This document shows positions 649 to 30,541 of a stretch of 64,000 nt of DNA, piece by piece. Below the pieces are notes generated by a model. That model saw only the letters and a program-made list of their open reading frames with translations, searched no databases and was not told the DNA's origin. The translations under genes were made by a program, and so were the position numbers. The stretch is from Bacillota bacterium (GTDB lineage Bacteria; Bacillota; JAAYKD01), in NCBI GenBank assembly GCA_036744005.1, contig DAINOJ010000013.1, forward strand, positions 10-64,009, in the 5' to 3' direction. How positions within the stretch are numbered: position 1 is the stretch's first letter; every line of letters starts with the position of its first letter.

Positions 649-1983
649 ATGCCGAAAATAATAAGAAAAATACCGCAAAAGACGCGATTGGAACCACCCA
701 AAAAGGTCGCTGCCTATGCGCGTGTTTCGTCTGGAAAGGATGCCATGCTCCACTCGCTATCTTCACAGGTTAGCTATTACAGTAGATTCATACAAAGCCA
801 CGCAGAGTGGCTTTATGTAGGCGTTTATTCTGACGAAGCACTGAGCGGTACGAAGGACAACCGAACCGGGTTCCAAAAACTTCTCGCAGACTGCCGTTCT
901 GGAAAGGTGAACATGATACTGACCAAGTCCATCTCTCGCTTTGCCCGGAACACGGTGACCTTGCTGGAAACCGTCCGCGAGCTCAAGTCGTTGGAGGTGG
1001 ATGTTTTTTTTGAGGAGCAGAGCATCCATACGCTGAGTGCTGAGGGCGAGTTAATGCTGACCATACTTGCATCCTACGCGCAGGAAGAAAGCTTATCCGC
1101 TAGTGAAAATCAAAAATGGCGCGTTCGTAAGGGCTTTGAAAACGGAGAATTGCTCAATTGGCGGTTCCTGTTCGGGTATAGCATTACGAAGGTTGGAATT
1201 GAGATCGATACCACCACTGCGCCGATTGTTCGCGAAATATTTACCCGCGTTATCGACGGAGTGTCCTTAGGAGTGATTAGTAGGAGTCTAAACAGCCGAG
1301 GTGTTTCAGGTGAGCTTGGTGGCAAATGGTGTACCCAGCGTATTCGCGAAATAATTAGTAATGAGAAATATACGGGAAGTGCCATGCTTCAAAAGCACTA
1401 CAGAAATAACCATCTAGAGAAAAAGAAATGCCGTAACACAGGTGAGTTACCCATGTTCTTTGCGGAAGAAACACATCATGCGATCATAGACAAGGAAACC
1501 TTCCTTGTAGCAAATGCTATTTTAAAGGGAATGCAGGAATCAGTCAAAAACAGATCGCGACCACAGAAAAGTGAGTTCACAGGTAAAATCCACTGCCCCT
1601 ACTGTGGGAAAAATTTTAAGCGAAACATCGGTAAATGCACCGTGGGTTGGAACTGCTCCACTTTTCTCGCCAAAGGTAAAACGTATTGTCATGGCAAAAA
1701 AATACCCGAAGCAACCCTACAGGCCATATGTGCCGAGGTTCTTGTAATGGAAACCTACAACTCAGTTATCTTCCAAGAGAGAGTTGAGCGTATTGAAGCT
1801 TCGGAAGACAATTATTTGCTTTTTGTTTTCAAAGACGGTAGCACAGTTGAGCGCACCTGGGCTGACCGCTCACGGCGGGAAAGCTGGACAGCACAAATGA
1901 AGGTAGCAGCAACCGAGCGAATACGCAGCCAAAGGGGGAAAAAACATGCCAAGAGTAACGACAATACCAGCGACAAAAAATAA
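649..1983 (+). CDS. large serine recombinase (resolvase + recombinase + Zn-ribbon domains)
   Basis: VAAYARVSS catalytic motif, LTKSISRFARN, Zn ribbon CPYCG...WNC; RBS AAGGAGGTG. Confidence 0.95.
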   Translation: MPKIIRKIPQKTRLEPPKKVAAYARVSSGKDAMLHSLSSQVSYYSRFIQSHAEWLYVGVYSDEALSGTKDNRTGFQKLLADCRSGKVNMILTKSISRFARNTVTLLETVRELKSLEVDVFFEEQSIHTLSAEGELMLTILASYAQEESLSASENQKWRVRKGFENGELLNWRFLFGYSITKVGIEIDTTTAPIVREIFTRVIDGVSLGVISRSLNSRGVSGELGGKWCTQRIREIISNEKYTGSAMLQKHYRNNHLEKKKCRNTGELPMFFAEETHHAIIDKETFLVANAILKGMQESVKNRSRPQKSEFTGKIHCPYCGKNFKRNIGKCTVGWNCSTFLAKGKTYCHGKKIPEATLQAICAEVLVMETYNSVIFQERVERIEASEDNYLLFVFKDGSTVERTWADRSRRESWTAQMKVAATERIRSQRGKKHAKSNDNTSDKK

Positions 1984-3517
1984 GTTCACTGCACTGCCAA
2001 ACTCAATCAATGCAAAGCGACGCACTGCAGGGTATGCTCGTGTTTCCACGGATAAGGACGAGCAGTTTACCAGTTATGAGGCACAAGTCGATTATTACAC
2101 CAAATACATTCAATCCCGAGAGGACTGGGAGTTCGTAAAGGTTTATACGGATGAGGGGATTTCTGCTTTGAATACGAAACACCGGGAAGGCTTTCAACAG
2201 ATGGTGCGAGATGCCATGGATGGCAAGATAGACCTCATCGTAACAAAATCGGTCAGCCGATTTGCGAGAAACACAGTAGACAGCCTGGTTACCATACGCA
2301 AGCTGAAGGAGAAAGGGGTGGAGTGTTATTTTGAGAAAGAAAACATCTTCACCTTTGATGGTAAAGGCGAGCTGCTTCTCACCATTATGAGTTCTCTGGC
2401 ACAGGAAGAAAGCCGTTCCATTTCAGAAAATGTCACGTGGGGCCATCGCAAACGATTCTCAGATGGCAAGGTCAGCGTCGGTTACTCTCAATTTCTCGGG
2501 TTTACTAAGGGCGAGGATGGAAACCTCAAAGTAGTGCCGGAGCAAGCCGAAACGGTACGACTCATCTATAAGATGTTCCTTGAGGGAAGAACCACACAGG
2601 GCATAGCCAATTACCTTATGGAACACGGCATTCTCAGCCCTGCTAGAAAGAAGACATGGCGGTCATCCACAGTTGCTAGTATCCTCACCAATGAGAAATA
2701 TAGGGGCGATGCACTGCTCCAGAAACGGTTTACCGTTGACTTTTTAACGAAAGAACTACGGGTAAATAATGGTGAAGTACCCCAATATTATGTAGAAAAT
2801 TCACATGAAGCCATTATCGCTCCTGAGGAATATGAAATGGTGCAAGGAGAAATGGCACGGCGTAAGGATCTGGGCAGAGCATACAGCGATAAGGCGTTTC
2901 ACAGTAAAATCATCTGCGGAGAATGTGGTGGTTTCTATGGCCGAAAGATCTGGCATTCCACGGATGAATATAGAAGTGTGATCTTCCAGTGCAATCAGAA
3001 ATTCAAAAACGAGAATAAGTGCACCACACCCAAACTCAGCGAGGAAGAAATCAAACAGCGATTCCTTAAAGCCTACAATGACTTGATGGGCAATCGTTCT
3101 TCGGTGCTTGCTGATTGTGAGCTTATCCGTCAGGTGCTCTGTGAGACCACGACGCTTGATGCCGAATTGCAACACGAGCAAGATGAAATGGTGATTATGT
3201 CAGAGCTCATGCATGCACACATAAAAAAGAATGCGTCCGTTGCTCAGTCGCAGGAAGCCTACGCACTGGAAACAGAACGCATTGAGAAACGCTATAACAC
3301 CGCACTGGAACATTACAATGCTCTAGAAGTAGAGAAAGAGAAGAGGATGCAGAAGAGTAAGGAAATTAGCATTTTCATCACAACGTTGAAAAAACAACCA
3401 CTAACCGTAATGGAATGGAACGATCGACTTTGGATTACACTACTTGACACTGCCACCGTTAATAGAGAAGGTGAGATCGTATTCAAGTTTAAAAATGGTG
3501 TGTTGATGACTGTATAA
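1946..3517 (+). CDS. second large serine recombinase
   Basis: TAGYARVST, VTKSVSRFARN, CGECG...FQC Zn ribbon, C-terminal coiled coil; overlaps the first recombinase. Confidence 0.95.
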   Translation: MPRVTTIPATKNKFTALPNSINAKRRTAGYARVSTDKDEQFTSYEAQVDYYTKYIQSREDWEFVKVYTDEGISALNTKHREGFQQMVRDAMDGKIDLIVTKSVSRFARNTVDSLVTIRKLKEKGVECYFEKENIFTFDGKGELLLTIMSSLAQEESRSISENVTWGHRKRFSDGKVSVGYSQFLGFTKGEDGNLKVVPEQAETVRLIYKMFLEGRTTQGIANYLMEHGILSPARKKTWRSSTVASILTNEKYRGDALLQKRFTVDFLTKELRVNNGEVPQYYVENSHEAIIAPEEYEMVQGEMARRKDLGRAYSDKAFHSKIICGECGGFYGRKIWHSTDEYRSVIFQCNQKFKNENKCTTPKLSEEEIKQRFLKAYNDLMGNRSSVLADCELIRQVLCETTTLDAELQHEQDEMVIMSELMHAHIKKNASVAQSQEAYALETERIEKRYNTALEHYNALEVEKEKRMQKSKEISIFITTLKKQPLTVMEWNDRLWITLLDTATVNREGEIVFKFKNGVLMTV

Positions 3518-3703
3518 AACAAACCAACCTGCAGATAAGTAGGATGGCTTAAAGCCTCCCAGTCAGGTTTAACTTAATCAGTGTGAGGAAACATCAGTAT
3601 TATGAGTTTTTACCTCAAGGCTAGACTAATAACAGAGATCATGGATACTACAGCAAATTTAACTGTGTGCTCCTGCTGGGATTCGTAATCAATTTGTCTT
3701 GAG

Positions 3704-4960
3704 CTAGTTTACAATTTGTTTTATGTACAAAGGTAATAAGTCATTCTCAATGTAGTTGAAAGCATCAATATGGCAATCATTATATCCACAATCTCCCGAT
3801 AAATTCCTTTGAAGATGGCAGCCACCATGACACAGGGGTAAATACTTACAATCTTGACATCTGGAAGGTATGTCTCTGGTTAATTGTTTATAAGATTTTA
3901 TTTGCAGATTCCCGTCTTTTATATAACCAAAATCAGCATCGTCCACTCCGACACCGTTAAAACATTTATATACTTTACAATCCGGACCAACAACAAAACT
4001 CGAATCCGACTCACCCAAGCAAATGATCGAACTCACTGGATTTGGTATTTTGAAACCAAGTTGCAGAGACTTTTCAAAAAGCGATTTTTGATTATCAAAT
4101 TCCTGATTCAATACACTACACTGGTTATATAGATATGTATCTTCCACAAGATGAGCAAAATATACACAAACCCCAGTTTTATTAATGATTAAAGCACCTA
4201 GTTCATCAAGTGCTTTCGAAGCAAAATCGAGATTTCCCTTTGGATAATTAATTCGAATATCGAGCGGGATGTTGTTCTTTACCAACAGATTAGCAACATT
4301 AATCAAGTTGTCATAAGATCCTTGCTTGACTTTATTATGGTTTTCCTTACAACCATCAAAAGTCAACTGAACACCTTTAACAGGTAATTTCTTTAAATCA
4401 TTTAGAACGGTCTCGTTGATCAGGGTGCCATTTGTTATAAATTTGAATCCGTAATTTTTGATTCTGCTCTTGCTTAAAACTTTGCTCACTTCCCATACTG
4501 GGTCCATATTTAAAAATGGCTCCCCACCGATGATATTGACCATTATCCTGTCAAATGCCGATGCTTTTAACCAGTTCTCCAACCATAATGTTACAGACTT
4601 GGTTTTGTTTTCGTCTAAACGAGAGCGGCTTTTCATTGGATTCTGAATACAATAATAACAAGACAGATTGCATTCCATTGTTGTCACTAGCGTTAGAGCA
4701 CCAGCTTTATTTGTATAGGTAGATTTGTTGTAAAAGTATTTTAACTTATAAAAGTCTTCTAGGTGGTCTTCAACAATGTATCCATAGCTAAAAAGTTTTT
4801 TCTGTAGGTCACTTGATAGCCGGTTAATGTGATTATGAATAATCAGGTCATATTCGTCACTTGCTATCGATATAATGCTTTGATTAATGTATGAGAATAA
4901 AAACACCTTGTTCGGGAAATTTGGAAGTATAATTGCTGAACAGTAATTGCTTAATAGGAT
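3704..4960 (-). CDS. radical SAM/SPASM peptide maturase A
   Basis: CNLSCYYC (CxxxCxxC), IIGGEPF, SPASM cysteines (CLGE...VYKC; CQDCKYLPLCHGGC). Start uncertain: GGAGGT is followed 6 nt later by in-frame ATC at 4960; the track's TTG at 4978 lies upstream of this RBS. Confidence 0.9.
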   Translation of the reverse strand: MLLSNYCSAIILPNFPNKVFLFSYINQSIISIASDEYDLIIHNHINRLSSDLQKKLFSYGYIVEDHLEDFYKLKYFYNKSTYTNKAGALTLVTTMECNLSCYYCIQNPMKSRSRLDENKTKSVTLWLENWLKASAFDRIMVNIIGGEPFLNMDPVWEVSKVLSKSRIKNYGFKFITNGTLINETVLNDLKKLPVKGVQLTFDGCKENHNKVKQGSYDNLINVANLLVKNNIPLDIRINYPKGNLDFASKALDELGALIINKTGVCVYFAHLVEDTYLYNQCSVLNQEFDNQKSLFEKSLQLGFKIPNPVSSIICLGESDSSFVVGPDCKVYKCFNGVGVDDADFGYIKDGNLQIKSYKQLTRDIPSRCQDCKYLPLCHGGCHLQRNLSGDCGYNDCHIDAFNYIENDLLPLYIKQIVN

Positions 4961-5009
4961 GTGATTACCTCCCTTCAAAGATAAGTATTATTTAAAGGGA
5001 ACTCTATCA

Positions 5010-5111
5010 TTAAAAAGGGCAATCTACAAAAAGATTAATCATGTTGCAACAGCATAAATCTATATCTACCGGTCCATCAACTATTAATAGGAAACCTTCT
5101 TTGATAATCAT
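5010..5111 (-). CDS. putative RiPP precursor peptide A, 33 aa MIIKEGFLLIVDGPVDIDLCCCNMINLFVDCPF
   Basis: Translated by hand: RBS GAGAGGAGGA (5126-5117), ATG 5111, TAA 5012-5010, TATAAT at 5151-5146; directly upstream of rSAM A on the same strand. Confidence 0.75.
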   Translation of the reverse strand: MIIKEGFLLIVDGPVDIDLCCCNMINLFVDCPF

Positions 5112-5183
5112 TAAAATCCTCCTCTCTATTATTTAGTCAAGTCTTATTATACGAGAAAACCGCTAATGACTTACAAATAATGT

Positions 5184-6110
5184 TTAGTTTGTGAACCTTT
5201 GTAAACGTTTCTCAAATTTTTTTCTCGCTTGTTGTGAATCATAACCGTTTTTAGAGAATTCTTCGGGCAGCCAATCAATTGAATAAGTTATGAGTTCCAA
5301 AATTAGTTTTGTATCCATTTCCTTAAGTAGAATACGATACAGCATTTCATGAGCACATATAATGATTAGACTTGAATAATTTCTTCTAGATTTCAGAATC
5401 TTCCAAAGTGTTTCACGTGCCAAATCTATCTTTCCAGATCTCCATTGGCACTCAGCAAGTAGAATATCCAAGTTCTGAGACGGATAGTTTTTTTGAACCT
5501 CTTCACATAATTTAAGTGCTGAGTTGCTCTGGCCTGTAACTAAGTAACCAAAAATAAGGTTATAACTAGATTGTAATGTGGGATTTAAATCTGCCTTTGA
5601 TTTAAGTTCATCTAAAACGTCATATGTACCGTAATACAATATCTGCAATAAAATTTTCTGATTATGAATTTGAAACAGTTTTCCTTGATCAAGATCACTA
5701 ACTTCATTTATCAGTTCGTCGATGCGAGTAATTAAGTTATGAGACTTGTGAAGTAAATGAGTTATTTCTATAGAGATTAATCTAAACTCCATTTCGTCGT
5801 CCATTTTCGCTTCGCCATCGAGCTTAACAAGGTCTTGTACTTTTTCATATTCATCTAAATCTAAATCAAAATAGTACCTTGAGATAGATTTTTTGATTTG
5901 TTCCTTATTGCTATACATCATTATGTTATCAATGGTCGTATTTAATACGGATGCCAAAACAGGCAACAATTCACTTGCTGGAAGAGTTTTTCCTTGTTCC
6001 CAATTATAAACAGTAGCAAGGGATACCCCCGTCTTCTCTGCTAGATCGTTTGGGGTTAAATCTCTATCTTCTCTTAATTCCCGAATTTTATTTCCAATGT
6101 TTTGTTTCAT
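5184..6110 (-). CDS. XRE-family HTH regulator with helical/TPR-like C-terminal domain (Rgg/RNPP-like architecture)
   Basis: IGNKIRELREDRDLTPNDLAEKTGVSLATVYNWEQG HTH, then about 240 aa rich in helices; RBS AAGGAGG before ATG 6110. Confidence 0.8.
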   Translation of the reverse strand: MKQNIGNKIRELREDRDLTPNDLAEKTGVSLATVYNWEQGKTLPASELLPVLASVLNTTIDNIMMYSNKEQIKKSISRYYFDLDLDEYEKVQDLVKLDGEAKMDDEMEFRLISIEITHLLHKSHNLITRIDELINEVSDLDQGKLFQIHNQKILLQILYYGTYDVLDELKSKADLNPTLQSSYNLIFGYLVTGQSNSALKLCEEVQKNYPSQNLDILLAECQWRSGKIDLARETLWKILKSRRNYSSLIIICAHEMLYRILLKEMDTKLILELITYSIDWLPEEFSKNGYDSQQARKKFEKRLQRFTN

Positions 6111-6310
6111 ATATAACCTCCTTAAACAAAATAGAATATTCTTCAAAATCAGCTTGAATCCCTTCTTTTATAGAAAGTTCAAAAGTATATAAACTGCTCA
6201 AAACTCGAATAATAGTTAGTATAAATGAGTAGTTGGAGAAATGAGTTTATGAACTAATAGTAGGTGAAGAAAGGTTTTAGATAATTATAGAAAAATGGGG
6301 TAATATGAAC

Positions 6311-6338
6311 ATTCAATGTATGATAACATACATTGAAT
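6311..6338. promoter_or_regulatory. 12-bp perfect inverted repeat, candidate operator
   Basis: ATTCAATGTATG-ataa-CATACATTGAAT in the divergent intergenic region. Confidence 0.5.
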
Positions 6339-6470
6339 TATACCATTAATGTTGATAAATTTTTTTATCTCTTGAGTCTGTCTTATTGACATCGATCCAG
6401 CCATTGAATATTACGATGATAATATCAATCATTGCCTAACCGCGGTAAAACATAAAAAATCTTATGAGTT

Positions 6471-6486
6471 TTCTAATATATTAGAA
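6471..6486. promoter_or_regulatory. 16-bp perfect palindrome, candidate activator site
   Basis: TTCTAATATATTAGAA, about 45 nt upstream of TATAAT at 6530-6535, which has no consensus -35. Confidence 0.4.
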
Positions 6487-6556
6487 GATTTTAAAACATG
6501 TTTTTGTGGAGTTCTCTCGTCTTGTGTTTTATAATCATAATGAAGGAGGTGAAAAT

Positions 6557-6697
6557 ATGAAACTTATTAGGCTTAATTCTAACGCGAATTCATCTACAAG
6601 TCAATGCTTTACAAACACCTGCCCCACCAATTGCTCCTGTGTTTCGTTTTACCCAAGTTGCCCACCAGATTGTACTTCAGTCAACACCCAACAGTAG
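6557..6697 (+). CDS. putative RiPP precursor peptide B, 46 aa with six Cys (MKLIRLNSNANSSTSQCFTNTCPTNCSCVSFYPSCPPDCTSVNTQQ)
   Basis: Strong RBS GAAGGAGGTG then ATG 6557; first gene of the operon containing rSAM B; Cys-free leader and Cys/Ser/Thr-rich core. Confidence 0.85.
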   Translation: MKLIRLNSNANSSTSQCFTNTCPTNCSCVSFYPSCPPDCTSVNTQQ

Positions 6698-6702
6698 TTT
6701 TA

Positions 6703-6780
6703 TTTTAGGTTTGTATGTTTGAAACCTAAAACTGACTTTCTAATTTGCTTGGGGTAGCTTTTGGCTACCCTTATATTTTT
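6703..6780 (+). terminator. tandem hairpins after precursor B
   Basis: TTTTAGGTTT/AAACCTAAAA (6703-6731) and GGGTAGC/GCTACCC (6752-6770) followed by a T-rich run. Confidence 0.6.
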
Positions 6781-6791
6781 AGGAGGAGAAT

Positions 6792-7241
6792 TTGCTAGAA
6801 ACCAGATTAACAAAATCAAGGCAGGAATTTGAAGAATTATTAGAATATATGTATAAGAATAAATTATTCATTGCTGATAGATTCAAAACCGAATGCATAG
6901 AATCTTTTCAGGATTTTATAAAGAATTTGCTCTGTTATTCAATAATTGAAACAGAAAATGAAAGTGTGGTTGGATGCATTGTAATCTTAAATCTTGATTC
7001 TTGGAACCATAGAGCTGAAATTAGATTTACCTATTATTTATATATTGAAGACACTGCCATTCTTGATATTTTCAATAAGTTTTTCTTTTTTGAGCTAAAT
7101 CTACATAGAATATATTGGATAACAGAGAAATGCAAAGTTTCTGCTTTTGAGAAGCTCCATGCATTTTTTGAAGGCGAATATATACAAGATAGCGTTAAGT
7201 ATTGTTTCTATTCGATGGTTGGGAAAAATCGTGTTTACTAA
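6792..7241 (+). CDS. RimJ/RimL-type GNAT-fold protein 1 (divergent)
   Basis: NLDSWNHRAEIRF and ELNLHRIYW...FFEG segments; RBS AGGAGG, TTG start. Confidence 0.6.
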   Translation: MLETRLTKSRQEFEELLEYMYKNKLFIADRFKTECIESFQDFIKNLLCYSIIETENESVVGCIVILNLDSWNHRAEIRFTYYLYIEDTAILDIFNKFFFFELNLHRIYWITEKCKVSAFEKLHAFFEGEYIQDSVKYCFYSMVGKNRVY

Positions 7242-7292
7242 AAAAGCAATTTTATTATAATATTAAATAGACTAAACTCATAACTCAGTGAG

Positions 7293-7742
7293 GTGTTTTT
7301 GTTGATTAATTTGGTGAATTTAAGCGAGTTAAATAAAATCGTCTTAGGAAATCGTAGGGCTTGGGTATATTCGCAATTTCCGCGAATCCCTACAGGGTAT
7401 GTTGAACGGCCTAATTTCCCACTCTCTGCTCTAAAATGGCAAGGTAAACATGGAAATATCCTCCTCATAATAATGGATGTTGAATTAACTTATGGCCAAG
7501 CTGAATTATGCTTTTTTGACTTTATAGGTAAAATCACAAGCGATGATGTTAAAAGATTTTGTGACTATTTTGGTAATTCGTTTGCTATAAGTCAGATAAG
7601 AACAACCATTCCAAAAAACGACGATTATATTGATGTTTTGCTTTCTGCGGGATTTAACCATGTTGCTTTCATGCAAGATCATATTTGTATATCACTAAAC
7701 ACTTACATAAATGCAGAAATATTAAATTATAAACTGATGTGA
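7293..7742 (+). CDS. RimJ/RimL-type GNAT-fold protein 2 (divergent)
   Basis: YGQAELCF, VLLSAGFNHVAFMQDHI resemble the RimL-type C-terminal GF..E motif; sits inside the operon. Confidence 0.5.
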   Translation: MFLLINLVNLSELNKIVLGNRRAWVYSQFPRIPTGYVERPNFPLSALKWQGKHGNILLIIMDVELTYGQAELCFFDFIGKITSDDVKRFCDYFGNSFAISQIRTTIPKNDDYIDVLLSAGFNHVAFMQDHICISLNTYINAEILNYKLM

Positions 7743-7757
7743 AGGAGACTGGCATGA

Positions 7758-9065
7758 ATGAATTACTTCAATAATAGAAAAAGCAATTTTACTATCAGGC
7801 AAAAACTTAACGAAAAAGAAACTTTGATACATAATACAAGTTCAAATACGTTGATCATTGTTGAAAATGAAGTTTATGAAAGATTTGAAAAATGTAATTG
7901 GAGCATATCTGAGCAAGAACGTTGGATAGAAGGCGGTTTTCTTATCGAAGACGAATTAGATGAGAGGGAGGATTTACTAAATCGATTTATTAGTGCAAGA
8001 AACTATTCGGATTTATCGTTAACAATCTGTCCTACTCTGGGCTGCAATCTACGGTGCGGTTATTGTTATGAGGATTCACAAAGTAAAATTGAATTCATGA
8101 GCGATTCCGTTGCAGATGAAATAGTAAGCTACGTTGAAAAAAATAAATTTGAGAATTTAGTGTTGACGTGGTATGGCGGAGAACCACTATTAGCATTAAG
8201 TAGAATTTTAGAGTTGCAAGAAAGGTTAAAATCCAAAACAAATAAAATTATATCAAGCATGATAACTAATGGTGTCCTCCTTACTAAGAAGACTTTCGAC
8301 GATCTAATAGTAGCGGGAGTAGGGCGGTTTCAGATTACAATTGATGGATCGAAATTTTACCATGACCTAAGAAGAATCACACCTAGCGGCGGAGGGACTT
8401 TTGATGTAATTACTCAGAATCTTCGTGATATAAATTGCGATCCGAAATATCTATCAATAAGAGTAAACATTGATAAAGAAAATAAAGAAGGCTTCATATC
8501 TCTATTAGAGTATTTTGATGAAGACCCTATTCTACGCAAATACTTAAGTATAATTTACCCTGCTCCAGTTACAGCTTGGTCCATTCTGCCAAATAACTGG
8601 ACTGAAAAATGCTTGGGTAATAAAGAGTATGCAGAGTTTTATTTTGATCTAAGTGATTTAGTTTATGAGCGGTATAGTATTAATTTAGTAAAAATTCCAG
8701 AATCAAAAAATATGTATTGTGGTGCTACAGTAAAGAATCATTTTGTTATTGGTCCAAAAGGTGAATTATACAAATGCTATATAACTGTTGGTGATACCAG
8801 TACAATTGTAGGTTATATAAATGGTGAAAATAAAGATGTTCTAAATAAAGAGGAATTGAGATTTTGGGATCAATGGAACCCCTTTAATAATGATAAATGT
8901 TATAATTGTCAGTTTCTCCCTCTATGTATGGGTGGTTGTCCGGGCTTAACCCATATAGCCAAAAAAAACCATGAGGACCAATGTTTTCAAATGAAAAGTT
9001 ATTATATAGATACAGTATCAAGGTCAATCCGCGGTGACTTAAATGAAATTAATGCAAGCGAGTAG
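7758..9065 (+). CDS. radical SAM/SPASM peptide maturase B
   Basis: CNLRCGYC, WYGGEPLL, SPASM (YCGA...LYKC; CYNCQFLPLCMGGCP...C), N-terminal extension consistent with an RRE. Confidence 0.93.
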   Translation: MNYFNNRKSNFTIRQKLNEKETLIHNTSSNTLIIVENEVYERFEKCNWSISEQERWIEGGFLIEDELDEREDLLNRFISARNYSDLSLTICPTLGCNLRCGYCYEDSQSKIEFMSDSVADEIVSYVEKNKFENLVLTWYGGEPLLALSRILELQERLKSKTNKIISSMITNGVLLTKKTFDDLIVAGVGRFQITIDGSKFYHDLRRITPSGGGTFDVITQNLRDINCDPKYLSIRVNIDKENKEGFISLLEYFDEDPILRKYLSIIYPAPVTAWSILPNNWTEKCLGNKEYAEFYFDLSDLVYERYSINLVKIPESKNMYCGATVKNHFVIGPKGELYKCYITVGDTSTIVGYINGENKDVLNKEELRFWDQWNPFNNDKCYNCQFLPLCMGGCPGLTHIAKKNHEDQCFQMKSYYIDTVSRSIRGDLNEINASE

Positions 9066-9549
9066 TTACGATGAATTGCTAAGTATAGCAAAACTTTATG
9101 AAAAACCTGAATATCTGAAATTCGCTGCTCAAAGTAAATACACTAATACTCAGATTCTTATAACCATATTCGATGAAGAGGTAAGAAAAGGTAATAACTT
9201 TTATTATGTAGGATACTATAAAAAAGAACCTGCAGTTGTTTTTGCTTTGAGAAACGTTTCAAGGTATAATAAAAGTGCTGAACTTCATATTGTTTTTATA
9301 ATTGAAAATGAAAGTTATAGATTTCTCTATATCGGTATCAAAGAGATGTACAGAATTGCATTTGATGAGCTACGTCTGAGAAAGCTTTATGGTCAAACAC
9401 CAAAATGGAATAACGGTTTAATAGGAATTTTATTGCTTACAGGAGCTGCTATAGTTGGGGAATTTGAGAAAGGAATATTTCACGATGGTATTTATAGTCC
9501 AAATGTGATATTGGAAATATTGAATCAAGATAATAAGTTTAGAAAGTGA
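9043..9549 (+). CDS. RimJ/RimL-type GNAT-fold protein 3
   Basis: VSRYNKSAELHI, AFDELRLRKLYGQTPKWN, GEFEKGIFHDGIY; overlaps the rSAM B stop. Confidence 0.7.
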   Translation: MKLMQASSYDELLSIAKLYEKPEYLKFAAQSKYTNTQILITIFDEEVRKGNNFYYVGYYKKEPAVVFALRNVSRYNKSAELHIVFIIENESYRFLYIGIKEMYRIAFDELRLRKLYGQTPKWNNGLIGILLLTGAAIVGEFEKGIFHDGIYSPNVILEILNQDNKFRK

Positions 9550-9550
9550 G

Positions 9551-10012
9551 ATGACTAATATGCTCATTATGCAAACAGATCGTCAAGAGGTTCTTAACAA
9601 ATGGAAAAGTCGGTTATCTATAAACGATTTAAGTGATAATGAAATCGGTGATTATTATGGAACCTTAGACAATATTAAGGTTATGATAAGACCTTTAATA
9701 GTTAACAATAAATCTGAAGTTGACATAGAAAACGTTAATTTTTTTGTTACAACTAATCATGATCTTAATGAAAATCAGATTAGTTTAGTCCTTGAAGGTG
9801 CTAAAGCCTATTTGCCTATTGTTTATCGATGGTTAGAAGATGAAAAGAGAATCCACAACAATATTCAAATTGTTAATCAGTTAGAACGTGAGTCAACGAT
9901 AAGAAAATTAACAGTCGAAATACCTAGTAAAATCGAACCGGATTTTCTAATAGGTATAAATGCGTTGACTAGGTATATTTTAGCGAGCGAGTTTTATGGC
10001 AAACAGGTATAG
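9551..10012 (+). CDS. hypothetical protein in the RiPP operon
   Basis: 153-aa ORF starting 2 nt after the previous stop; no recognised motif. Confidence 0.6.
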   Translation: MTNMLIMQTDRQEVLNKWKSRLSINDLSDNEIGDYYGTLDNIKVMIRPLIVNNKSEVDIENVNFFVTTNHDLNENQISLVLEGAKAYLPIVYRWLEDEKRIHNNIQIVNQLERESTIRKLTVEIPSKIEPDFLIGINALTRYILASEFYGKQV

Positions 10013-10167
10013 TATTAAAAATTTAATGTTTTTAGAAACACTATATTAACCCTTTCATTTTAACATTAGATTCTAAAGAAGTATGAAGGCAAAATGATTT
10101 TTTGAGTATGCTTCGAACTACAAATTCAAGACGTATAAACTTTTGAAATTTCGAGGAGGCGCATATT

Positions 10168-10848
10168 ATGGGAAACCAAATTGTAGCAATCAAAGGGGAT
10201 AGATTACGCCGGGTCTTCCATCTGGGAGATCAGGAAGTTCGTGCATTAGATGAGATCAACATTGAAGTGTATCAGGGGGAGCTTGTCATGCTCCTTGGCC
10301 CTTCGGGTTCGGGAAAAACAACTCTTTTGCATACCTTGTCTGGTTTAGATGCACCGGATCGAGGAGAAGTTTTCGTAGACGACGTGTCAATCTATAAACT
10401 GAATGATAATAAGTTATCTCATTTACGTAGTCGGTCTTTCGGTTTCGTTTTTCAGTCGTTTAACTTATTACCAAACCTGACTGCCTTAGAAAATGTGCAG
10501 ATTCCGTTACGCATAACAGGGCAAGACAATCCAGTCGAGAAATCAATGGAAATGCTCAAGCGTGTGGGCTTGGGCGACCGGGCACACCACCGACCAGGAC
10601 AACTCTCGGGAGGAGAACAACAGCGAGTCACCGTAGCTCGAGCCTTAGTATCAAAACCAAAAATTGTCTTTGCCGATGAACCGACCGGAAACTTAGATTC
10701 CGTGACCAGCATGGAGATCATGAATCTGCTGAAGGAAATGGTCCATGAAAACAACTCGGCATGTTTAATGGTTACTCACAATGCTGAAATGGTTCCGTTA
10801 GCAAATCGGGTTTTATACTTAAGAGACGGGAAAATGGTAAATAAGTAA
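10168..10848 (+). CDS. ABC transporter ATP-binding subunit (LolD/MacB-type)
   Basis: GPSGSGKT, LSGGEQQR, ADEPTGNLD, VTH. Confidence 0.95.
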   Translation: MGNQIVAIKGDRLRRVFHLGDQEVRALDEINIEVYQGELVMLLGPSGSGKTTLLHTLSGLDAPDRGEVFVDDVSIYKLNDNKLSHLRSRSFGFVFQSFNLLPNLTALENVQIPLRITGQDNPVEKSMEMLKRVGLGDRAHHRPGQLSGGEQQRVTVARALVSKPKIVFADEPTGNLDSVTSMEIMNLLKEMVHENNSACLMVTHNAEMVPLANRVLYLRDGKMVNK

Positions 10849-10869
10849 AACCGAAGGGAGAAAATTCCG

Positions 10870-11943
10870 ATGTTCAAACTCTCGGTAAAACTCATTCAAT
10901 GGAATCTCACCAGGAATCGACTGCAGTTATTGATTATGGTATTAGCGGTGATAGGTTCTTTAAGCAGCTATGTACTTTTAGGTACAGCACTAAACGAAAT
11001 GTCAGATAAAGTTGTGGATGTGCAAAGGTCGGACTGGCCATTTGACATTGAGATTATTGGTAATATTGATGATGAAGAAATGAAAAAAATCATGAGCATA
11101 CCAGGTGTGAAATATATGGAAGAAGTATACACAACTGAAGCTTTTGTTTATTCTAGCGAAATGGAGTTTTTGCTGATACCTAAAGAAGATACTAAAGTAA
11201 TCATTGAAATGGAAGCTGGAAATCTACCGAACAATGCGAACGAGGTCGCAATATCGGGGAAATTAGCAGTAGCTTATCAATTAAATGTTGGAGATCGTTT
11301 AAAAGTATTGCCGGGGATATCTGTTCTTCCTATTGATTACGAAATATCTGGAATAGTGAGTAGTAAAAAAGGTGTCGTTACAAAACTACTACTCAATGAA
11401 GAAGGATACCTTAGACAAACATCGCTTTTTGGTAAAAAAGCAATACAGTTGGATGGGAAAGTCGATATTGGTTTTGTTGTAGACGAATTAAAGAAGGTCG
11501 ACGCCGGATACCTCATTAAAAAATATGAAGAGAATTATACCAATACAAAAAACAGTCTAGGGTTGTCCGATACTATGGTAATGAGTTTACGTTTCTTAAT
11601 ATTGGGAATCACAGCAACCTCGTTAGCAGTTTTGCTCTATATTGGTCAGCGTAGTGGTGCATATCAGACAGGTGTCTTATTAGCTATGGGAATAAAAAAA
11701 CCATGGTTAATGCTTCCTACCATAAGCCAAACGACAATCACTTTCCTCATTGGATTTTTAGCAACGTCTGCCATTTTACCAATCGTATCGAAATCCTTGG
11801 GATTAGTAACAGAACCATTCGATATCTTGTGGACGTTAGTAAAAGATATAGCGGTTTATTATGGAGTTGGCATGCTCAGTACGTTAATCATTACTATGCA
11901 ATTTTTAGGAACACCTATTCCTAAATTACTCAAAGACTCTTAG
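10870..11943 (+). CDS. ABC permease, FtsX/MacB-like
   Basis: N-terminal TM, large extracellular domain, three C-terminal TMs, GVLLAMG motif. Confidence 0.85.
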   Translation: MFKLSVKLIQWNLTRNRLQLLIMVLAVIGSLSSYVLLGTALNEMSDKVVDVQRSDWPFDIEIIGNIDDEEMKKIMSIPGVKYMEEVYTTEAFVYSSEMEFLLIPKEDTKVIIEMEAGNLPNNANEVAISGKLAVAYQLNVGDRLKVLPGISVLPIDYEISGIVSSKKGVVTKLLLNEEGYLRQTSLFGKKAIQLDGKVDIGFVVDELKKVDAGYLIKKYEENYTNTKNSLGLSDTMVMSLRFLILGITATSLAVLLYIGQRSGAYQTGVLLAMGIKKPWLMLPTISQTTITFLIGFLATSAILPIVSKSLGLVTEPFDILWTLVKDIAVYYGVGMLSTLIITMQFLGTPIPKLLKDS

Positions 11944-11962
11944 ATACTGAGGAGGTGATCCT

Positions 11963-13177
11963 ATGCTTTGGATGACATTCGTGTCTTTTCGGCGAAATCT
12001 TCATAATTACTCCTTAGCCATTATTGGGTTAGCTCTTGCAGTCTTAGTGAGCTGCATAGGATTGAGTGGGTTGGGCATGCTTCAGGATTTCGCCTTAGTA
12101 CCTTTACGATTTTTGTTTGGAGAAAATGTTATTATTGCCGATGCAAGAACCGAAATCAAGACCACATCTACAATGATTTATGCTGATCCACTCGATATTA
12201 AACCATTCTCGGCAACGCTTGTAAACTCTTTTTTAGAAGAAGTAGCACCTGGCACCAAACTGGAAAAGGTTCTCATTGCTCCATATAGGATGCGAGATGG
12301 GTGGAGCTATGTTGCCGGAAGAATGAACCCAGATGAGAAAATAAGAAAATACATATATAGTTCGGATGTAACAGAAGGAGTTTTTAGCGACAGTTATGAA
12401 AAAATCTATCTTGCAACCGATCAGAGGTTTAAAAACAATAATGGAGAGATTAGCAGCCCTCTGTTGTACTTAGGTGCTGGAGATTATATGAATTTAACCG
12501 TACCAACGATTACTACCGAAAAAAACGGTTATGATTGGTCGATACCAAATCTGGCAAAAAAACAAGTTCAGGTTCAAAGTTTATATGACTCCTCCAGTGT
12601 TATGTATATGGTTGATTGGGTCAAGTTGGATGTTCTTCAGCAACTCGTTGGTGGGAATGAACCAGTATCTTTTATTTCTGTTGAATGTCCTTTAAACAAA
12701 ATGGACGAATTAAAGAATACTCTGGTGACTCGAATGGAAGAGGAAAATTTTCCTTTGCAGGTTTGGACAATTTATGATGTCGGGGAATTACTGTACGGGG
12801 ACTTTGAGCGATTTGAAGTGATGGCTGACTATTATGTTCCGGTAATGATGTTTGTTTCCGTTCTTATTGTGCTCGTCAATTCGATTGCATTGACGTTATC
12901 GCGCCGTAAAGAGCTTGCATTAATGCGTATCGTTGGATTCAGCCAAATACAGATACAAATGATGTTTGTTGCTGAATGTATCATAATTGCACTTCTTGGA
13001 GGTTTATTGGGAACCGGGATCGCTGGGTTTATTTCGATGCAATTCACTAACACATTTAGTGTTAATTGGTTACCGTATATCATTGCTTTAGTTTCTACTG
13101 CGGTTGTAAGTACGATTACTACCATTTTGCTGACCAAAGGAAGTTTAGCAAGCATTATGAGAAATCCGGTTGAGTAA
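11963..13177 (+). CDS. ABC permease, FtsX/MacB-like
   Basis: RRKELALMRIVGFS FtsX motif, same topology as the previous permease. Confidence 0.9.
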   Translation: MLWMTFVSFRRNLHNYSLAIIGLALAVLVSCIGLSGLGMLQDFALVPLRFLFGENVIIADARTEIKTTSTMIYADPLDIKPFSATLVNSFLEEVAPGTKLEKVLIAPYRMRDGWSYVAGRMNPDEKIRKYIYSSDVTEGVFSDSYEKIYLATDQRFKNNNGEISSPLLYLGAGDYMNLTVPTITTEKNGYDWSIPNLAKKQVQVQSLYDSSSVMYMVDWVKLDVLQQLVGGNEPVSFISVECPLNKMDELKNTLVTRMEEENFPLQVWTIYDVGELLYGDFERFEVMADYYVPVMMFVSVLIVLVNSIALTLSRRKELALMRIVGFSQIQIQMMFVAECIIIALLGGLLGTGIAGFISMQFTNTFSVNWLPYIIALVSTAVVSTITTILLTKGSLASIMRNPVE

Positions 13178-13273
13178 AATATTGAGCTTGGGCTTCTCCC
13201 TTCGATGTTTTCTTACCGAAAAAACAAAAACACATATAGATACAATAGTGTATATAAACCCGGAGGTGGTATT

Positions 13274-14107
13274 ATCAAGATCAAAATTCTAGTTGATAGT
13301 TCATGCGATATGCCGAGAGAGTATATTAGAAAATGGAATATTGGGGTGGCTCCACTTTTTGTTCAATTAGGTAAAAATAGCTTTCAAGATGGTGTTAACC
13401 TTAGCACTGAAGAATTCTATCGATGGTGCAGAACACACACGGAAGTCCCTCAAACAGCCCAACCGTCCGTTGGAATTTGTGAAAAGCTGATCCGTGAGAG
13501 CTTAGAGGAACATGATCATGTCATCTGTTTCACAGTATCTTCTTCGCTATCCAGCACATTACAAGCTTTCCGTATAGCTTCAGAAGAGTATAAGGAAAGT
13601 GTTACCGTTTTTGATACATTATCTGTGTCTCTTGGAATAACACTTTTAGTTCTACATGCAGTTGAGTTAATTGAAAAAGGTTCTGATATCGATGAAATTC
13701 TTTTACGGCTTCAGGAAGCACGCAAACACCAAAAAGTTATCATGTCTTTACAGACGTTGGAATATGCTGTTAAAGGAGGTCGTGTCACCCGATGGTCACC
13801 TGTTGATTCAGATATATTATCAATTAAGCCAATTTTACATATTGATTGCAATGGATATGCAAAAGTATTAGAGAAAGTTCGTAGCGAACGTCTTGCTTTT
13901 CGCTTTTTAATCAATACCATGAAAGATACGTTTGGCAATACCCAACCATTTAGGATTGGTATAGCTCATGGAGATAGTGAAGATCAGGCAAGGAAATTTA
14001 TGCAGATTGTTAGAGAGGAATTGAACCCTAAAGAGATTATTTTTTCGCAAATAGGTCCTGTCATTGGATCTCATATCGCCCCAGGTGCTTTATTGGTCTC
14101 ATTTTAA
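13274..14107 (+). CDS. DegV/FakB family fatty-acid-binding protein
   Basis: KIKILVDSSCDMP, PQTAQPS, SSSLSST, VFDTLSVSLG, GGRV, IKPIL, IAHG, IGSHIAPG. Start uncertain: GGAGGT 13262-13267 then ATC 13274; the track's ATG at 13205 has no RBS. Confidence 0.9.
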   Translation: MKIKILVDSSCDMPREYIRKWNIGVAPLFVQLGKNSFQDGVNLSTEEFYRWCRTHTEVPQTAQPSVGICEKLIRESLEEHDHVICFTVSSSLSSTLQAFRIASEEYKESVTVFDTLSVSLGITLLVLHAVELIEKGSDIDEILLRLQEARKHQKVIMSLQTLEYAVKGGRVTRWSPVDSDILSIKPILHIDCNGYAKVLEKVRSERLAFRFLINTMKDTFGNTQPFRIGIAHGDSEDQARKFMQIVREELNPKEIIFSQIGPVIGSHIAPGALLVSF

Positions 14108-14441
14108 TTCGTATAAACTGTTAAGTCATCTTTCAATCTCTCTATTTAGGTGGTCGTCCCTGAGCCAGACCTCTGTTTTGCACTTTCGTTTAAAGGTTAG
14201 ATGATTTGTTATCTCGATGCGAATACAGGTATACTCTAGATGAGTCATGAGATTGTAGTCTTAAATCTTTTGCGGATTAATCAGTTTGACTTCACCTCAT
14301 CAATTTCACAAACAGGAAGTAGTTACGGTGCACTCATTAAACGAAAACAAAGTTATCGATTGTTTATTGTATTAAGCTCGTTTCTTTTACCCTGTATTCA
14401 AGTAGGAATCAGTAATCAAGAAAACACACTCCAAAAGAGCA

Positions 14442-14620
14442 CGTGTGCACAAAGCAAACGGAACAAACGGGAATAAGGCTACCAGGTGCATTTTGTATCA
14501 AACTCGTGTCCTTCTCCAAAAAAATCAGCACACCAACGCGGTGTGCTGATTTTTTTGGTGGAGGGAACCCGTAGCCAATGTTTGCATTGGCGAAGCTCTG
14601 GCAATTAAAAGCGTTTGCGA
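14442..14620. repeat. structured repeat element, copy 1
   Basis: 14442-14573 aligns ungapped to 33596-33727 with 8 mismatches in 132 nt; 19-bp perfect hairpin 14516-14558; 7-bp hairpin plus GAAGC at 14574-14596. Confidence 0.9.
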
Positions 14621-14727
14621 AGCACAATGCGGAATTGCTGGAGTCCACCATCACAGTATTATACGAACTTCTTCTATTTCAAAGGAGGCTTTGCCTTCAC
14701 AATCATGCTGGAAAACTGCATAAAAGA

Positions 14728-14765: not shown

Positions 14766-15348
14766 GGCAGAAAAAAAGTCAACACATTCTCGCTGGGCGC
14801 AATGCGTCCAATTCGCAAAGTGCCATACGAGAAGTTGACTTCTTAGAACACCAGCGCTATCCCGTCAGTACCGCAAGGGTAAAGCTCAAAGCGAAGAATT
14901 TCGCCCGGTTAGGATGCCCACTGATGCTCATGATAATTATATCAGAGGAACTGAGAAAAGTCAAAAAGTTGCTCTCTATTTTTGACTTCGTTGCTGCTTT
15001 GTTTATTGCATCAACCAAGAGATTCGGAAGCTCTTCCGATGTACTGTTTAATTCGGCAGAAATTTCTCTAATTGTATGAAATAGAAAGGAAATTGCGGTA
15101 GACTGGGGGAATAGTGTATTTAAACAAAAACTAATGAATTTGAGTTTTCATGAATACGAACCATATGGAGTGGAAGCGGGTTTTCTAACCATTCAAAACT
15201 TCCTAAATTTGTCGTATCGCAAAACAATAACTCTCCATTGCGGTTCTCCAATTTACGAGATTTTAGCAATGGATTTTTTTTGCCCGGATTAGCATTCTGA
15301 GATAAGAAATCCATACTCACATCATGATCAGCAGAAGAGGTGATATAT

Positions 15349-15954
15349 ATGAACAAACAAATGCCATACAATGGCACCCTAACAGCGGAACAATTTTTGT
15401 ATTACGAAATGAGAATTGTATCCAAGCTGCATCTTGAGGGAAAGAATATGGAAGAGATTATTGAATGCATCCAGCGTGATAACCTGTTCCAGTTTCCTAC
15501 CGAGCGAATGATTTATAGAATTGCTAGTGCATGTTACAAACGCATCATTGCATTGGATAACCCGAAGCTTGTCTACGAAGTAGCAAATGCTCCGGTCGAT
15601 GTCGCTAAACAGATCAACCTTTACTCGATGATGTGTTACAACCGTCTAGTCCGTGAATTTATGGAAGGGCTGATTGGAGAAAAGTATCGGCAACAAGATT
15701 ACTCTTATACTAGGAAGGACATCAACATATTTTTCACCCGTTTACAGGAGCAGCACGACGATGTAGCAGCTTGGAGCGATAAGACGATTGGGAAATTAAA
15801 GCAAGTATTAACCAAATGCCTCATTGAAACGGAGATGCTCAATAGTGTGAAGGATACCACGCTCAACCCTATTTTTATAAGTTCTGAACTGGAAACTGGC
15901 ATCCGTGAAAACAACGACTTGACCGCTCTCGCTGCGTTCAATTGCTTTAGGTAG
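15349..15954 (+). CDS. brxA: BREX protein BrxA (DUF1819)
   Basis: YNGTLTAEQFLYYEMR, DNLFQFPTE, WSDKTIGKLKQ; first gene of the BREX operon; RBS AAGAGGTG. Confidence 0.9.
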   Translation: MNKQMPYNGTLTAEQFLYYEMRIVSKLHLEGKNMEEIIECIQRDNLFQFPTERMIYRIASACYKRIIALDNPKLVYEVANAPVDVAKQINLYSMMCYNRLVREFMEGLIGEKYRQQDYSYTRKDINIFFTRLQEQHDDVAAWSDKTIGKLKQVLTKCLIETEMLNSVKDTTLNPIFISSELETGIRENNDLTALAAFNCFR

Positions 15955-15964
15955 GAGTGTGAAT

Positions 15965-16522: not shown

Positions 16523-16533
16523 GAGGCAAGCAA

Positions 16534-20052: not shown

Positions 20053-20064
20053 AGGAAGTGAACC

Positions 20065-23523: not shown

Positions 23524-23531
23524 GGAGGAAC

Positions 23532-26129: not shown

Positions 26130-26147
26130 GGAAAGGAGGGTTCTGCT

Positions 26148-30464: not shown

Positions 30465-30541
30465 AGGAATCAAATTGCTAATCAGGAACACTCGGAGGGT
30501 TACTTACATATAGTGACAGAGCTTTTTTAGTTAGAGCCTGT

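Follow-up and report, generated by a model that had tools for sequence, protein, structure and literature searches.

Between positions 3,704 and 14,107 of a 64,000-nucleotide (nt) stretch of Bacillota DNA (GenBank assembly GCA_036744005.1, contig DAINOJ010000013.1, GTDB lineage JAAYKD01), two divergently transcribed sets of genes encode two small Cys-containing peptides, pepA and pepB, two radical S-adenosylmethionine (rSAM) enzymes, rSAM_A and rSAM_B, a regulator, several small accessory proteins, an ATP-binding cassette (ABC) system and a DegV protein (Table 1). The whole 64-kb stretch is referred to here as the window, and all coordinates are window positions unless a related contig is named. 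On sequence grounds, the pepB operon is the founding example of a rare family of precursors of ribosomally synthesised peptides with post-translational modifications (RiPPs), so far found only in metagenomes. A preliminary description, made from the letters alone, had already listed the genes of this locus, and an open reading frame (ORF) map together with Pfam and NCBIfam scans found every one of them in its place. Related sequences are cited below by handles between L009 and L033.

Table 1. Features of the peptide locus and of the direct repeats to its right, in window coordinates; RBS, ribosome-binding site; HTH, helix-turn-helix; GNAT, Gcn5-related N-acetyltransferase; tmRNA, transfer-messenger RNA.
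Feature	Position	Strand	Basis or remark
rSAM_A, radical SAM/SPASM peptide maturase	3704-4978	-	Radical_SAM, SPASM TIGR04085
pepA, 33-residue precursor candidate MIIKEGFLLIVDGPVDIDLCCCNMINLFVDCPF, 4 Cys	5010-5111	-	AGGAGG 7 nt upstream of ATG
Regulator, N-terminal XRE HTH and C-terminal helical-repeat (TPR-like) domain	5184-6146	-	likely start 6110, 308 residues (public gene calls)
Variable junction between left module and pepB module	6186-6440		similarity to L031 ends at 6185; replacement or deletion in L009
Palindrome TTCTAATATATTAGAA, candidate operator of the regulator	6471-6486		about 43 nt upstream of the -10 box
Promoter of the pepB operon, -10 box TATAAT	6530-6535	+	sequence reading
pepB, 46-residue precursor MKLIRLNSNANSSTSQCFTNTCPTNCSCVSFYPSCPPDCTSVNTQQ, 6 Cys	6557-6697	+	RBS GAAGGAGG upstream
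Terminator-like hairpin and T-run, possible attenuator	6751-6781	+	just 3' of pepB
s1, 149-residue divergent GNAT-fold-like protein (SpeG/RimJ/AAC(6') type)	6792-7241	+	family profile against PDB
s2, 149-residue orphan	7293-7742	+	between s1 and rSAM gene in all four lineages
rSAM_B, radical SAM/SPASM peptide maturase, presumed pepB cross-linker	7758-9065	+	Radical_SAM, SPASM TIGR04085
s3, 168-residue divergent SpeG-like, GNAT-fold-like protein	9043-9549	+	23-nt overlap with the end of rSAM_B
Orphan, 153 residues (150 in public gene calls)	9551-10012	+	no family match
MacB/LolD-type ABC ATPase	10168-10848	+	ABC_tran 118 bits
FtsX-type permease 1	10870-11943	+	FtsX 11 bits only
FtsX-type permease 2	11963-13177	+	FtsX 41 bits
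DegV/FakB-type fatty-acid-binding protein	13205-14107	+	TIGR00762 268.4 bits (cut-off 99.7)
Attachment (att)-like direct repeat, copy 1, right end of island	14442-14573	+	pseudo 3' end of tmRNA and terminator hairpin
att-like direct repeat, copy 2	33596-33727		self-BLAST 94% over 132 nt

The pepB operon and its accessory proteins

The precursor gene pepB was missed by public gene callers, and neither its product, in which the Cys are irregularly spaced (x4, x3, x1, x6 and x3), nor any of its three homologues matches an NCBIfam model at E ≤ 10, the SCIFF precursor model TIGR03973 included, or a Pfam model. An exhaustive HMMER search with s1, encoded downstream of pepB, gave three distant homologues (23-33% identity) that occur with the same operon on short contigs, and homologous precursors stand ahead of the s1 homologues in L016-L021. 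Syntenic loci, for which the preliminary description had suggested a search, could therefore be recognised: the order Cys-rich small ORF, s1, s2 and rSAM gene is found in four lineages, namely the window together with L009 (97%), L010 (53%), L016 and L021. The C-terminal parts of four precursors, which read ...SQCFTNTCPTNCSCVSFYPSCPPDCTSVNTQQ in the window, ...QPCPSDTCPTNCSCVSFYPSCPPDCTSVNTQG in L020, ...QPCDPQECPFNCHCIDNVCPPVA in L016 and ...KPCDPQECPFDCQCIDNVCPPVG in L021, have in common the motif C-x4-C-P-x-[N/D]-C-x-C-x(4-6)-C-P-P, with five invariant Cys.

At the nucleotide level, the last 25 codons of pepB differ from L020 at 18 of 78 positions, amounting to 13 synonymous codon changes and a single non-synonymous one, and in that same lineage s1, s2 and rSAM_B are 22%, 49% and 53% identical to the window proteins, respectively. 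Compared with L009, pepB shows five synonymous differences and one non-synonymous difference. These ratios of 13:1 and 5:1, next to such divergent neighbours, provide strong comparative evidence that pepB is translated and that its core is a constrained product. The RBS of pepB is strong, as is that of pepA. Scanning 185,579 species-representative genomes with the s1 profile gave no relatives. The hairpin behind pepB is kept in L009, and the gap of 57 nt in L020 leaves no room for it; it is possibly an attenuator setting the precursor-to-enzyme ratio.

Both rSAM enzymes carry the CX3CX2C motif (CNLSCYYC in rSAM_A, CNLRCGYC in rSAM_B) and exceed the cut-offs of PF04055 Radical_SAM (50.5 bits for rSAM_A and 61.1 bits for rSAM_B, cut-off 29.5) and of the SPASM model TIGR04085 (42 and 55.8 bits, cut-off 27), the Cys pattern of the latter being visible in the translations. 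Neither of them belongs to any curated NCBIfam maturase family. For rSAM_B, TIGR04463 scores highest, with 250.7 bits (cut-off 525; rSAM_A reaches 137.3 bits), followed by CefB (203 bits, cut-off 600), Clo7bot (201 bits), the geopeptide family (201 bits) and PapB (127 bits, cut-off 340; E 1e-36), and the best scores of rSAM_A are those of the geopeptide maturase (161 bits, cut-off 400) and of CefB (155 bits, cut-off 600). The CefB definition NF038107 combines its 600 bits with a Cys at every fifth residue, and both enzymes as well as the spacing in pepB fall outside it; the SCIFF maturase model TIGR03974, with a cut-off of 425 bits, gives 68.2 bits for rSAM_B and 58 bits for rSAM_A. Amongst solved structures, the closest to rSAM_B is that of the ranthipeptide maturase CteB (5wgg, E 3.7e-14); for rSAM_A, the PDB gave nothing at E ≤ 1e-5. 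Between rSAM_A and rSAM_B the identity is 27.6%.

A search of 5.8 billion proteins with rSAM_B gave one homologue of 97% and one of 53% identity, the remainder being at most 39% identical. The remoter homologues adjoin other Cys-rich precursors, such as those with C-x4-C repeats in L011 and KHCC repeats in L014 or a 142-residue Cys-rich protein in L013. No relatives of s1, s2 or s3 occur in these contexts (L011-L014), so that the trio appears specific to a narrow family. Since the top curated families for both enzymes are maturases of Cys-rich RiPPs, and since Cys-rich precursors also lie beside the remote homologues of rSAM_B, Cys-directed cross-linking is the activity most naturally expected of it.

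The preliminary description had labelled s1, s2 and s3 alike as GNATs, a label that survives in part for s1 and s3 and falls away for s2. None of the three matches any Pfam or NCBIfam model, those of acetyltransferases included, even at E ≤ 10. The profiles of s1 and s3 nevertheless match GNAT structures, and nothing else, in the PDB: for the s1 family profile these are AAC(6'), SpeG and YdaF-like proteins (best E 1.2e-4), and for the s3 profile, which combines s3 with its copy in L009 and a fragment from L010, they are GNATs of the SpeG type that align collinearly with residues 11-163 of the 168 (E 2.7e-4, compared with E 0.4 for the single sequence). The two proteins, moreover, show a weak relationship, with hmmsearch E ~1e-3 in a database of 13 proteins and hhalign E 0.006. 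However, the acetyl-CoA (coenzyme A) pyrophosphate loop Q/R-x-x-G-x-G/A, which follows strand 4, is absent from the alignments of both: in HMMER alignments the SpeG loop 'QGyGyA' faces 'liedtsil' in s1 and 'nesyrfly' in s3, without a glycine. With modest statistical support, s1 and s3 can be considered GNAT-fold-like proteins whose cofactor site is probably degenerate, and they are unlikely to be ordinary acetyltransferases. The AlphaFold2 models were too poor for a check of the fold, with a predicted local distance difference test (pLDDT) value of 43 for s3 alone and 47 for s1 with three homologues, and Foldseek searches of the PDB with these low-pLDDT models gave nothing at E ≤ 0.001.

A different picture emerges for s2, for which no relation to anything could be detected: it has no PDB match, whether as single sequence or as profile, and none of its five family members has a Pfam match. 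The possibility that s2 is a paralogue of s1 or s3 was rejected, as there is no HH or HMM signal to either. Its homologues, 22-49% identical, are encoded in L010/L019, L016 and L021; the copy in L016 (897-1306) is split by a frameshift into pieces of 89 and 83 residues on a contig of 1.6x coverage, reflecting either a sequencing error or a pseudogene. Both s2 and s3 find only themselves among the 5.8 billion proteins. An N-terminal fragment of s3, 32% identical, stands at the same position in L010, and in at least two lineages s3 and the stop codon of the rSAM gene overlap. The fixed places of s1 and s2, between precursor and rSAM gene in four lineages, and of s3 argue that the three proteins are integral to maturation, in which they could act as non-catalytic substrate-handling partners or as transferases with an unusual donor. 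The orphan encoded behind s3 is conserved in L009 at 93% and is without match in Pfam, NCBIfam, the PDB or PADLOC.

The left arm and the candidate operator

The regulator of the left arm scores 47.6 bits with HTH_3 and 20.5 bits with TPR_19, the latter under the cut-off of 25, and its C-terminal domain of about 220 residues in helical repeats gives weak PPR/TPR matches in the PDB (E 0.1-0.3). No Rgg or other RRNPP-type family is found among its 20 NCBIfam matches; in its domain order it can be described as RRNPP-like. The gene pepA starts 72 nt downstream of the regulator gene, so that a small peptide gene adjoins the regulator; it was called by public gene callers on 15 contigs, and its product matches no Pfam or NCBIfam model. 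Residues 5-13 of pepA, EGFLLIVDG, resemble the mature short hydrophobic peptide (SHP) pheromone EGIIVIVVG (Table 1 of PMC13361665). This likeness is no more than a lead, as the maturation of SHPs is from the C-terminus, whereas the stretch in pepA is N-terminal. A further ORF of 28 residues (MIDIIIVIFNGWIDVNKTDSRDKKIYQH, 6346-6432, minus strand), located between the palindrome and the regulator, has an SHP-like hydrophobic run first (cf. DIIIIVGG); it has a poor RBS, lies in an AT-rich region, is absent from L009 and may be due to chance.

As for rSAM_A, the same species-representative genomes yielded no relatives, and a metagenome scan gave a single one, 94% identical, in L015. Its start is uncertain between 4906 and 4978. 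The longest ORF opens with TTG without an RBS; 7 nt behind a GGGAGG inside it stands ATC, which is not a canonical start; and public gene callers give a protein of 400 residues from a GTG 24 codons further in; family alignments begin already at residue 9.

Upstream of pepB the -10 box is not accompanied by a good -35 box, which fits an activator-dependent promoter. The perfect palindrome ahead of it, TTCTA-N6-TAGAA, occurs once in the window, where 0.08 occurrences are expected (7 of 100 shuffles have any match), and the whole segment 6441-6556, comprising palindrome and promoter up to the pepB start, is identical in L009. The same palindrome is also found once in L031 (2085-2100), in a spacer that is non-homologous to the window and lies beside the same regulator, about 43 nt ahead of a -10-like TATATT that is followed by an RBS, a 13-residue ORF and the regulator gene. 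Neither the window nor the other lineages gave further copies beyond these two exact sites. Its recurrence beside the same regulator in unrelated DNA makes the palindrome a candidate operator, and the evidence that it is the operator of this regulator can be called modest but real; if it is, the regulator of the left module would control the pepB operon in the window.

The 13-residue ORF of L031 (2184-2225; MLKRLFQKSKFYQ), which has a strong RBS (AAGGAGGG), may encode a leader or regulatory peptide or be a chance ORF. Between the two arms of the window there is, in addition, a perfect 12-nt inverted repeat, ATTCAATGTATG-ATAA-CATACATTGAAT, at 6311-6338, with a further CATTGAAT at 6402. The stretch containing it is missing in L009, so that neither module requires it, and may be the remnant of a recombination event or a second operator.

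Modular organisation and island context

Although the genes are contiguous in the window, as expected from the preliminary description of a single locus, they form a mosaic of three separable modules, each of which is found elsewhere in other contexts. On the left, L031 carries the regulator (99%), pepA (100%, while the divergent side differs) and the start of rSAM_A, with 98.7% nucleotide identity to window positions 6185-4836. Beyond position 6185 it is unrelated, with about 1 kb of other spacer and then a divergent fused ABC exporter in place of the pepB operon. The left arm is thus a self-standing cassette in which a regulator, a precursor and a maturase go together, and it has its own exporter elsewhere. 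In L009, about 6190-6440 is replaced or deleted.

On the right, L032 matches the window from 10165 to 14519 at 95%, which covers the ABC ATPase, both permeases and DegV, and the 132 nt ahead of its ABC start codon are unrelated to window positions 10013-10164. In L009 the spacer between the orphan and the ABC gene is conserved, but nucleotide identity is no higher than 76% at the start of the ABC gene. Since the ABC and DegV genes of L032 lie behind other upstream DNA, DegV travels with the pump and not with the RiPP core, and its initial inclusion among the RiPP components finds no support. The ATPase is similar to LolD, DevA, MacB and the ATPase of the darobactin system, DarD (E 1e-56 to 1e-71), and the ABC system as a whole (10168-13177) is presumed to be an exporter or an immunity pump. 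Base composition agrees with this division. The AT-richness reported earlier is confirmed by GC contents of 33.7% for 3568-6185 and 31.7% for 6441-10164, compared with 45.1% on the left flank and 41-43% further right; the ABC/DegV block, at 38.9%, is nearer to the right flank, and the junction 6186-6440 has only 27.5%. As the steps between 33.7%, 31.7% and 38.9% fall at the module junctions, they count for modularity.

From left to right, the window contains a serine-recombinase element (1 to about 3567), the RiPP/ABC/DegV island (about 3568-14441), the first att-like repeat, a bacteriophage exclusion (BREX) island and the second att-like repeat. The repeat matches the flank of a complete tmRNA gene in L015 (ARAGORN; Rfam 151 bits), which is located about 160 nt past the 94% relative of rSAM_A, in the region 1441-1918 of that contig. 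No tmRNA gene was found in the window, nor did Rfam detect any RNA family there. Taken together, the att-like repeats and the tmRNA gene beside the rSAM_A relative show the RiPP and BREX islands to be a tandem array at an ssrA (tmRNA) integration hotspot. Both islands are without an integrase of their own. In L032 and L033, position 14519 is followed directly by 14648, so that 128 nt (14520-14647) with the terminator hairpin of tmRNA type and some 70 nt beyond it are missing; the att region is thus polymorphic between samples.

The element at the left end of the window contains two overlapping genes for large serine recombinases (649-1983 and 1946-3517) behind small DUF2116- and SHOCT-like genes, and in longer contigs an Amidase_2/SPOR lysin-like gene also stands ahead of the recombinases. 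It has 45% GC, is absent between the tmRNA gene and rSAM_A in L015, and probably represents the terminal part of a prophage or integrative element that inserted at the left edge of the island. To the right, positions 15340-33122 contain a complete type-1 BREX system with BrxA, BrxB, BrxC, the PglX methylase (20065-23523), PglZ (23532-26129) and BrxL (26148-28223), followed by a phospholipase D (PLD)/NgoFVII-like nuclease (28470-30464) and an Abi_2 protein (31977-33122, minus strand). A direct repeat of 325 nt (76%) links the end of brxL (27904-28227) with a segment just past the PLD nuclease gene (30542-30866). A reading of the peptide locus itself as a defence system, considered on account of the adjacent BREX genes, was rejected, as its PADLOC matches are generic only: the rSAM cores match viperin models (41-45 bits), the regulator matches through its HTH, and there is one weak permease match.

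Interpretation and comparison with known systems

The explanation that best accommodates these observations, with a probability of roughly 65%, is that of a composite RiPP locus in which a new core family, an independent left cassette and a recruited pump have come together. It takes gene content, conservation, the selection on pepB, the modularity and the island context as observed, and adds to them proposals on chemistry, on the roles of s1, s2 and s3, on regulation and on export. The locus lies on a genomic island at the ssrA hotspot of an uncultured anaerobic-digester bacterium. Its core (6441-10164) consists of the Cys-rich precursor, s1, s2 and the rSAM/SPASM enzyme, together with s3 in at least two lineages. 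According to this proposal, rSAM_B would bind the short leader of pepB, and its SPASM auxiliary clusters would help to cross-link the conserved Cys to nearby side chains or backbone carbons, giving thioethers of the sacti- or ranthipeptide type. The proteins s1 and s3, taken as degenerate members of the GNAT fold from which the acetyl-CoA pyrophosphate loop has been lost, and s2 would be obligatory partners, acting as substrate chaperones, as scaffolds or as transferases with a non-CoA donor. The left module (3568-6185) would make a second, unrelated cross-linked peptide from pepA by means of rSAM_A, and its regulator probably acts via TTCTA-N6-TAGAA as an activator of the pepB promoter and, elsewhere, of its own operon. 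Finally, the third module (10165-14519), with its MacB-type pump and DegV, would have been recruited by recombination, presumably for export or self-protection.

The earlier characterisation of the locus as an undescribed RiPP system stands on this evidence: both rSAM enzymes score below all curated cut-offs, the peptides have no family match, the accessory proteins form orphan families, the pepB core is under strong purifying selection and no relative was found in the 185,579 species-representative genomes. Full correspondence to a characterised RiPP family, which had been named as the outcome that would speak against it, was not found in comparisons with SCIFF, TIGR04463, CefB, PapB, Rgg/SHP and thuricin-type systems.

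Several points nevertheless weigh against the composite reading. As the modules can occur apart from one another, the left arm and the ABC/DegV block may be functionally independent of pepB, and the operator proposal rests on two sites only. All relatives sit on short metagenomic contigs, and pepA is invariant among the contigs available, so that no selection signal can be read from it. All cross-link proposals are made by analogy, and as the rSAM enzymes lie far below every curated cut-off, the links may be thioether, C-C or C-O bonds. As already noticed in the preliminary description, there is no obvious leader peptidase, since Pfam and NCBIfam scans of the locus proteins found no peptidase domain. 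Structure predictions for s1 and s3 failed (pLDDT 43-47), the fold searches were uninformative, and the GNAT assignment has E values of only about 1e-4 for s1 and s3 and no support at all for s2.

Amongst the alternatives, a cascade of signal and effector as raised in the preliminary description, with rSAM_A-modified pepA as a quorum pheromone that is sensed by the TPR domain of the regulator and switches on the pepB operon, would make sense of the RRNPP-like build of the regulator (HTH_3 and helical repeats in 308 residues), of the small peptide gene directly downstream in the same operon, of the palindrome that ties the regulator to the pepB promoter and of the likeness between pepA and an SHP; control of rSAM RiPPs by Rgg/SHP pairs is, furthermore, established (PMC13361665, PMC8092268). 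Such a cascade is nonetheless unlikely, given that the left arm occurs without the pepB operon and beside its own exporter, as an ordinary self-contained RiPP cassette would, that the TPR score stays under the Pfam cut-off and no RRNPP or Rgg model matches, and that the SHP-like stretch is at the N-terminus of pepA. To our knowledge, every RRNPP pheromone described so far is a linear peptide without modification. The fully integrated version, in which the pepA product, cross-linked by rSAM_A, is the pheromone of the RRNPP-like regulator and, via the TTCTA-N6-TAGAA operator, turns on a second, chemically new RiPP made from pepB by rSAM_B, with a trio of cofactor-less pseudo-GNATs and orphan required as a novel type of scaffold that presents the substrate, is more doubtful still.

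Acylation offers another view of the same genes, with s1 and s3 as active acyltransferases that either acylate pepB or provide immunity by acylating the product (cf. MccE/RimL and microcin C), and with DegV supplying the fatty acid of a lipopeptide. GNATs of RiPP clusters are known to acylate peptides in the case of selidamides (PMC8784127) and lipolasso peptides (bioRxiv 10.1101/2024.12.31.630886), a GNAT of unknown role, PasC, belongs to a daropeptide cluster (PMC10849128), the s1 and s3 profiles do match SpeG/AAC(6')/RimL-type GNATs, and the fatty-acid-binding DegV is encoded at the end of the same strand. What makes this view improbable is the loss of the glycine loop together with the lack of any Pfam acetyltransferase match, the association of DegV with the ABC pump, also without a RiPP core upstream, the absence of Lys from the pepB core, and the fact that literature searches gave no link between DegV and RiPPs. 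It is highly improbable that rSAM_B turns pepB into a metal-binding or redox peptide of chalkophore- or cofactor-like function, as opposed to a secreted antimicrobial or signal: the five invariant Cys with their CP and CPP motifs would suit such a role, and SPASM enzymes also mature PQQ and mycofactocin, whose families are among the weaker NCBIfam matches here, but the top families are all cross-linking maturases of Cys-rich RiPPs, a MacB-type exporter lies adjacent on a mobile island beside defence genes, and redox or metal-handling partner genes are missing. Hardly credible, finally, is a decaying recombination patchwork whose genes are intact by chance and whose modules no longer work. Three mosaic junctions, an island without its own integrase and the odd start codon of rSAM_A would be in keeping with decay; against it stand the intactness of all ORFs across 13-15 contigs from several samples, the purifying selection on pepB and the conservation of promoter, RBS and palindrome in L009.

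Provided that the core of the composite locus works as proposed, it would introduce a new precursor class for rSAM/SPASM RiPPs and a new obligatory accessory set, formed by two degenerate GNAT-fold-like proteins without the CoA loop plus an orphan, from which new chemistry might follow, or a novel mode of substrate presentation to the rSAM enzyme. Uncharacterised SPASM clusters are numerous, and new chemistry is so far not evident here. Being absent from species-representative genomes and known from metagenomes only, the family is invisible to isolate-based genome mining. The mosaic, with regulator cassette, core operon and transporter shuffled on a tmRNA-linked island beside BREX, represents a concrete case of cluster assembly and spread, and the regulator, palindrome and pepA together provide a case for asking whether an RRNPP-like receptor can use an rSAM-modified peptide ligand.

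Of the known systems, SCIFF peptides and other ranthipeptides (CteB, PapB) resemble the pepB core in having a precursor of about 45 residues, with six Cys in the C-terminal half, and an rSAM/SPASM maturase with an N-terminal extension, CteB being the closest structure to rSAM_B. SCIFF loci, however, lack partners such as s1, s2 and s3, and membership in this group, as suggested by the 46 residues and six Cys of pepB, was rejected on two counts, the score of the maturase and the lack of a match to the precursor model. TIGR04463 ('very short Cys-rich peptide') and CefB, the best families for rSAM_B, likewise have Cys-rich precursors, but rSAM_B scores below half of their cut-offs, pepB differs in its irregular Cys and invariant CP/CPP motifs, and the partner genes are others. 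Literature searches gave no paper mentioning TIGR04463 or the gene combination described here.

The locus of the two-peptide sactibiotic thuricin CD, with TrnA/TrnB and TrnC/TrnD, resembles the present one in its pair of precursors, its pair of rSAM/SPASM enzymes and its ABC transporter. The thuricin CD type is nonetheless defined by related, co-transcribed precursors, whereas pepA and pepB are unrelated and belong to divergent operons, the two rSAM enzymes share the low identity given above, and the left pair stands alone in L031. RiPP pathways with GNATs, such as those of selidamides, lipolasso peptides and PasC, place GNAT-fold proteins beside RiPP maturases, which s1 and s3 may parallel; theirs are recognisable GNATs with acyl-CoA or acyl-ACP (acyl carrier protein) donors, in contrast to s1 and s3, which are invisible to Pfam and have no glycine loop, and here s1, together with the orphan s2, sits between precursor and rSAM gene.

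With the streptococcal RaS-RiPPs (Rgg/SHP-controlled, such as streptide and tryglysin), the locus shares an HTH regulator, here with a TPR-like domain, a small hydrophobic peptide gene, an rSAM operon and a palindrome at the promoter. It differs in that its regulator matches no Rgg or RRNPP model, that its host is not a streptococcus, that the small peptide gene has its own rSAM gene behind it, so that the peptide is probably modified, and that precursors and rSAM enzymes are unrelated to StrB, WgkB and NxxcB (rSAM_A matches the WgkB model with E 1e-11, far below the cut-off). By analogy, the locus would work like the sacti- and ranthipeptide systems and be regulated like the RaS-RiPPs; as judged from the sequences compared, its enzyme class and logic are familiar, and its precursor family, accessory trio and mosaic and regulatory arrangement are new.

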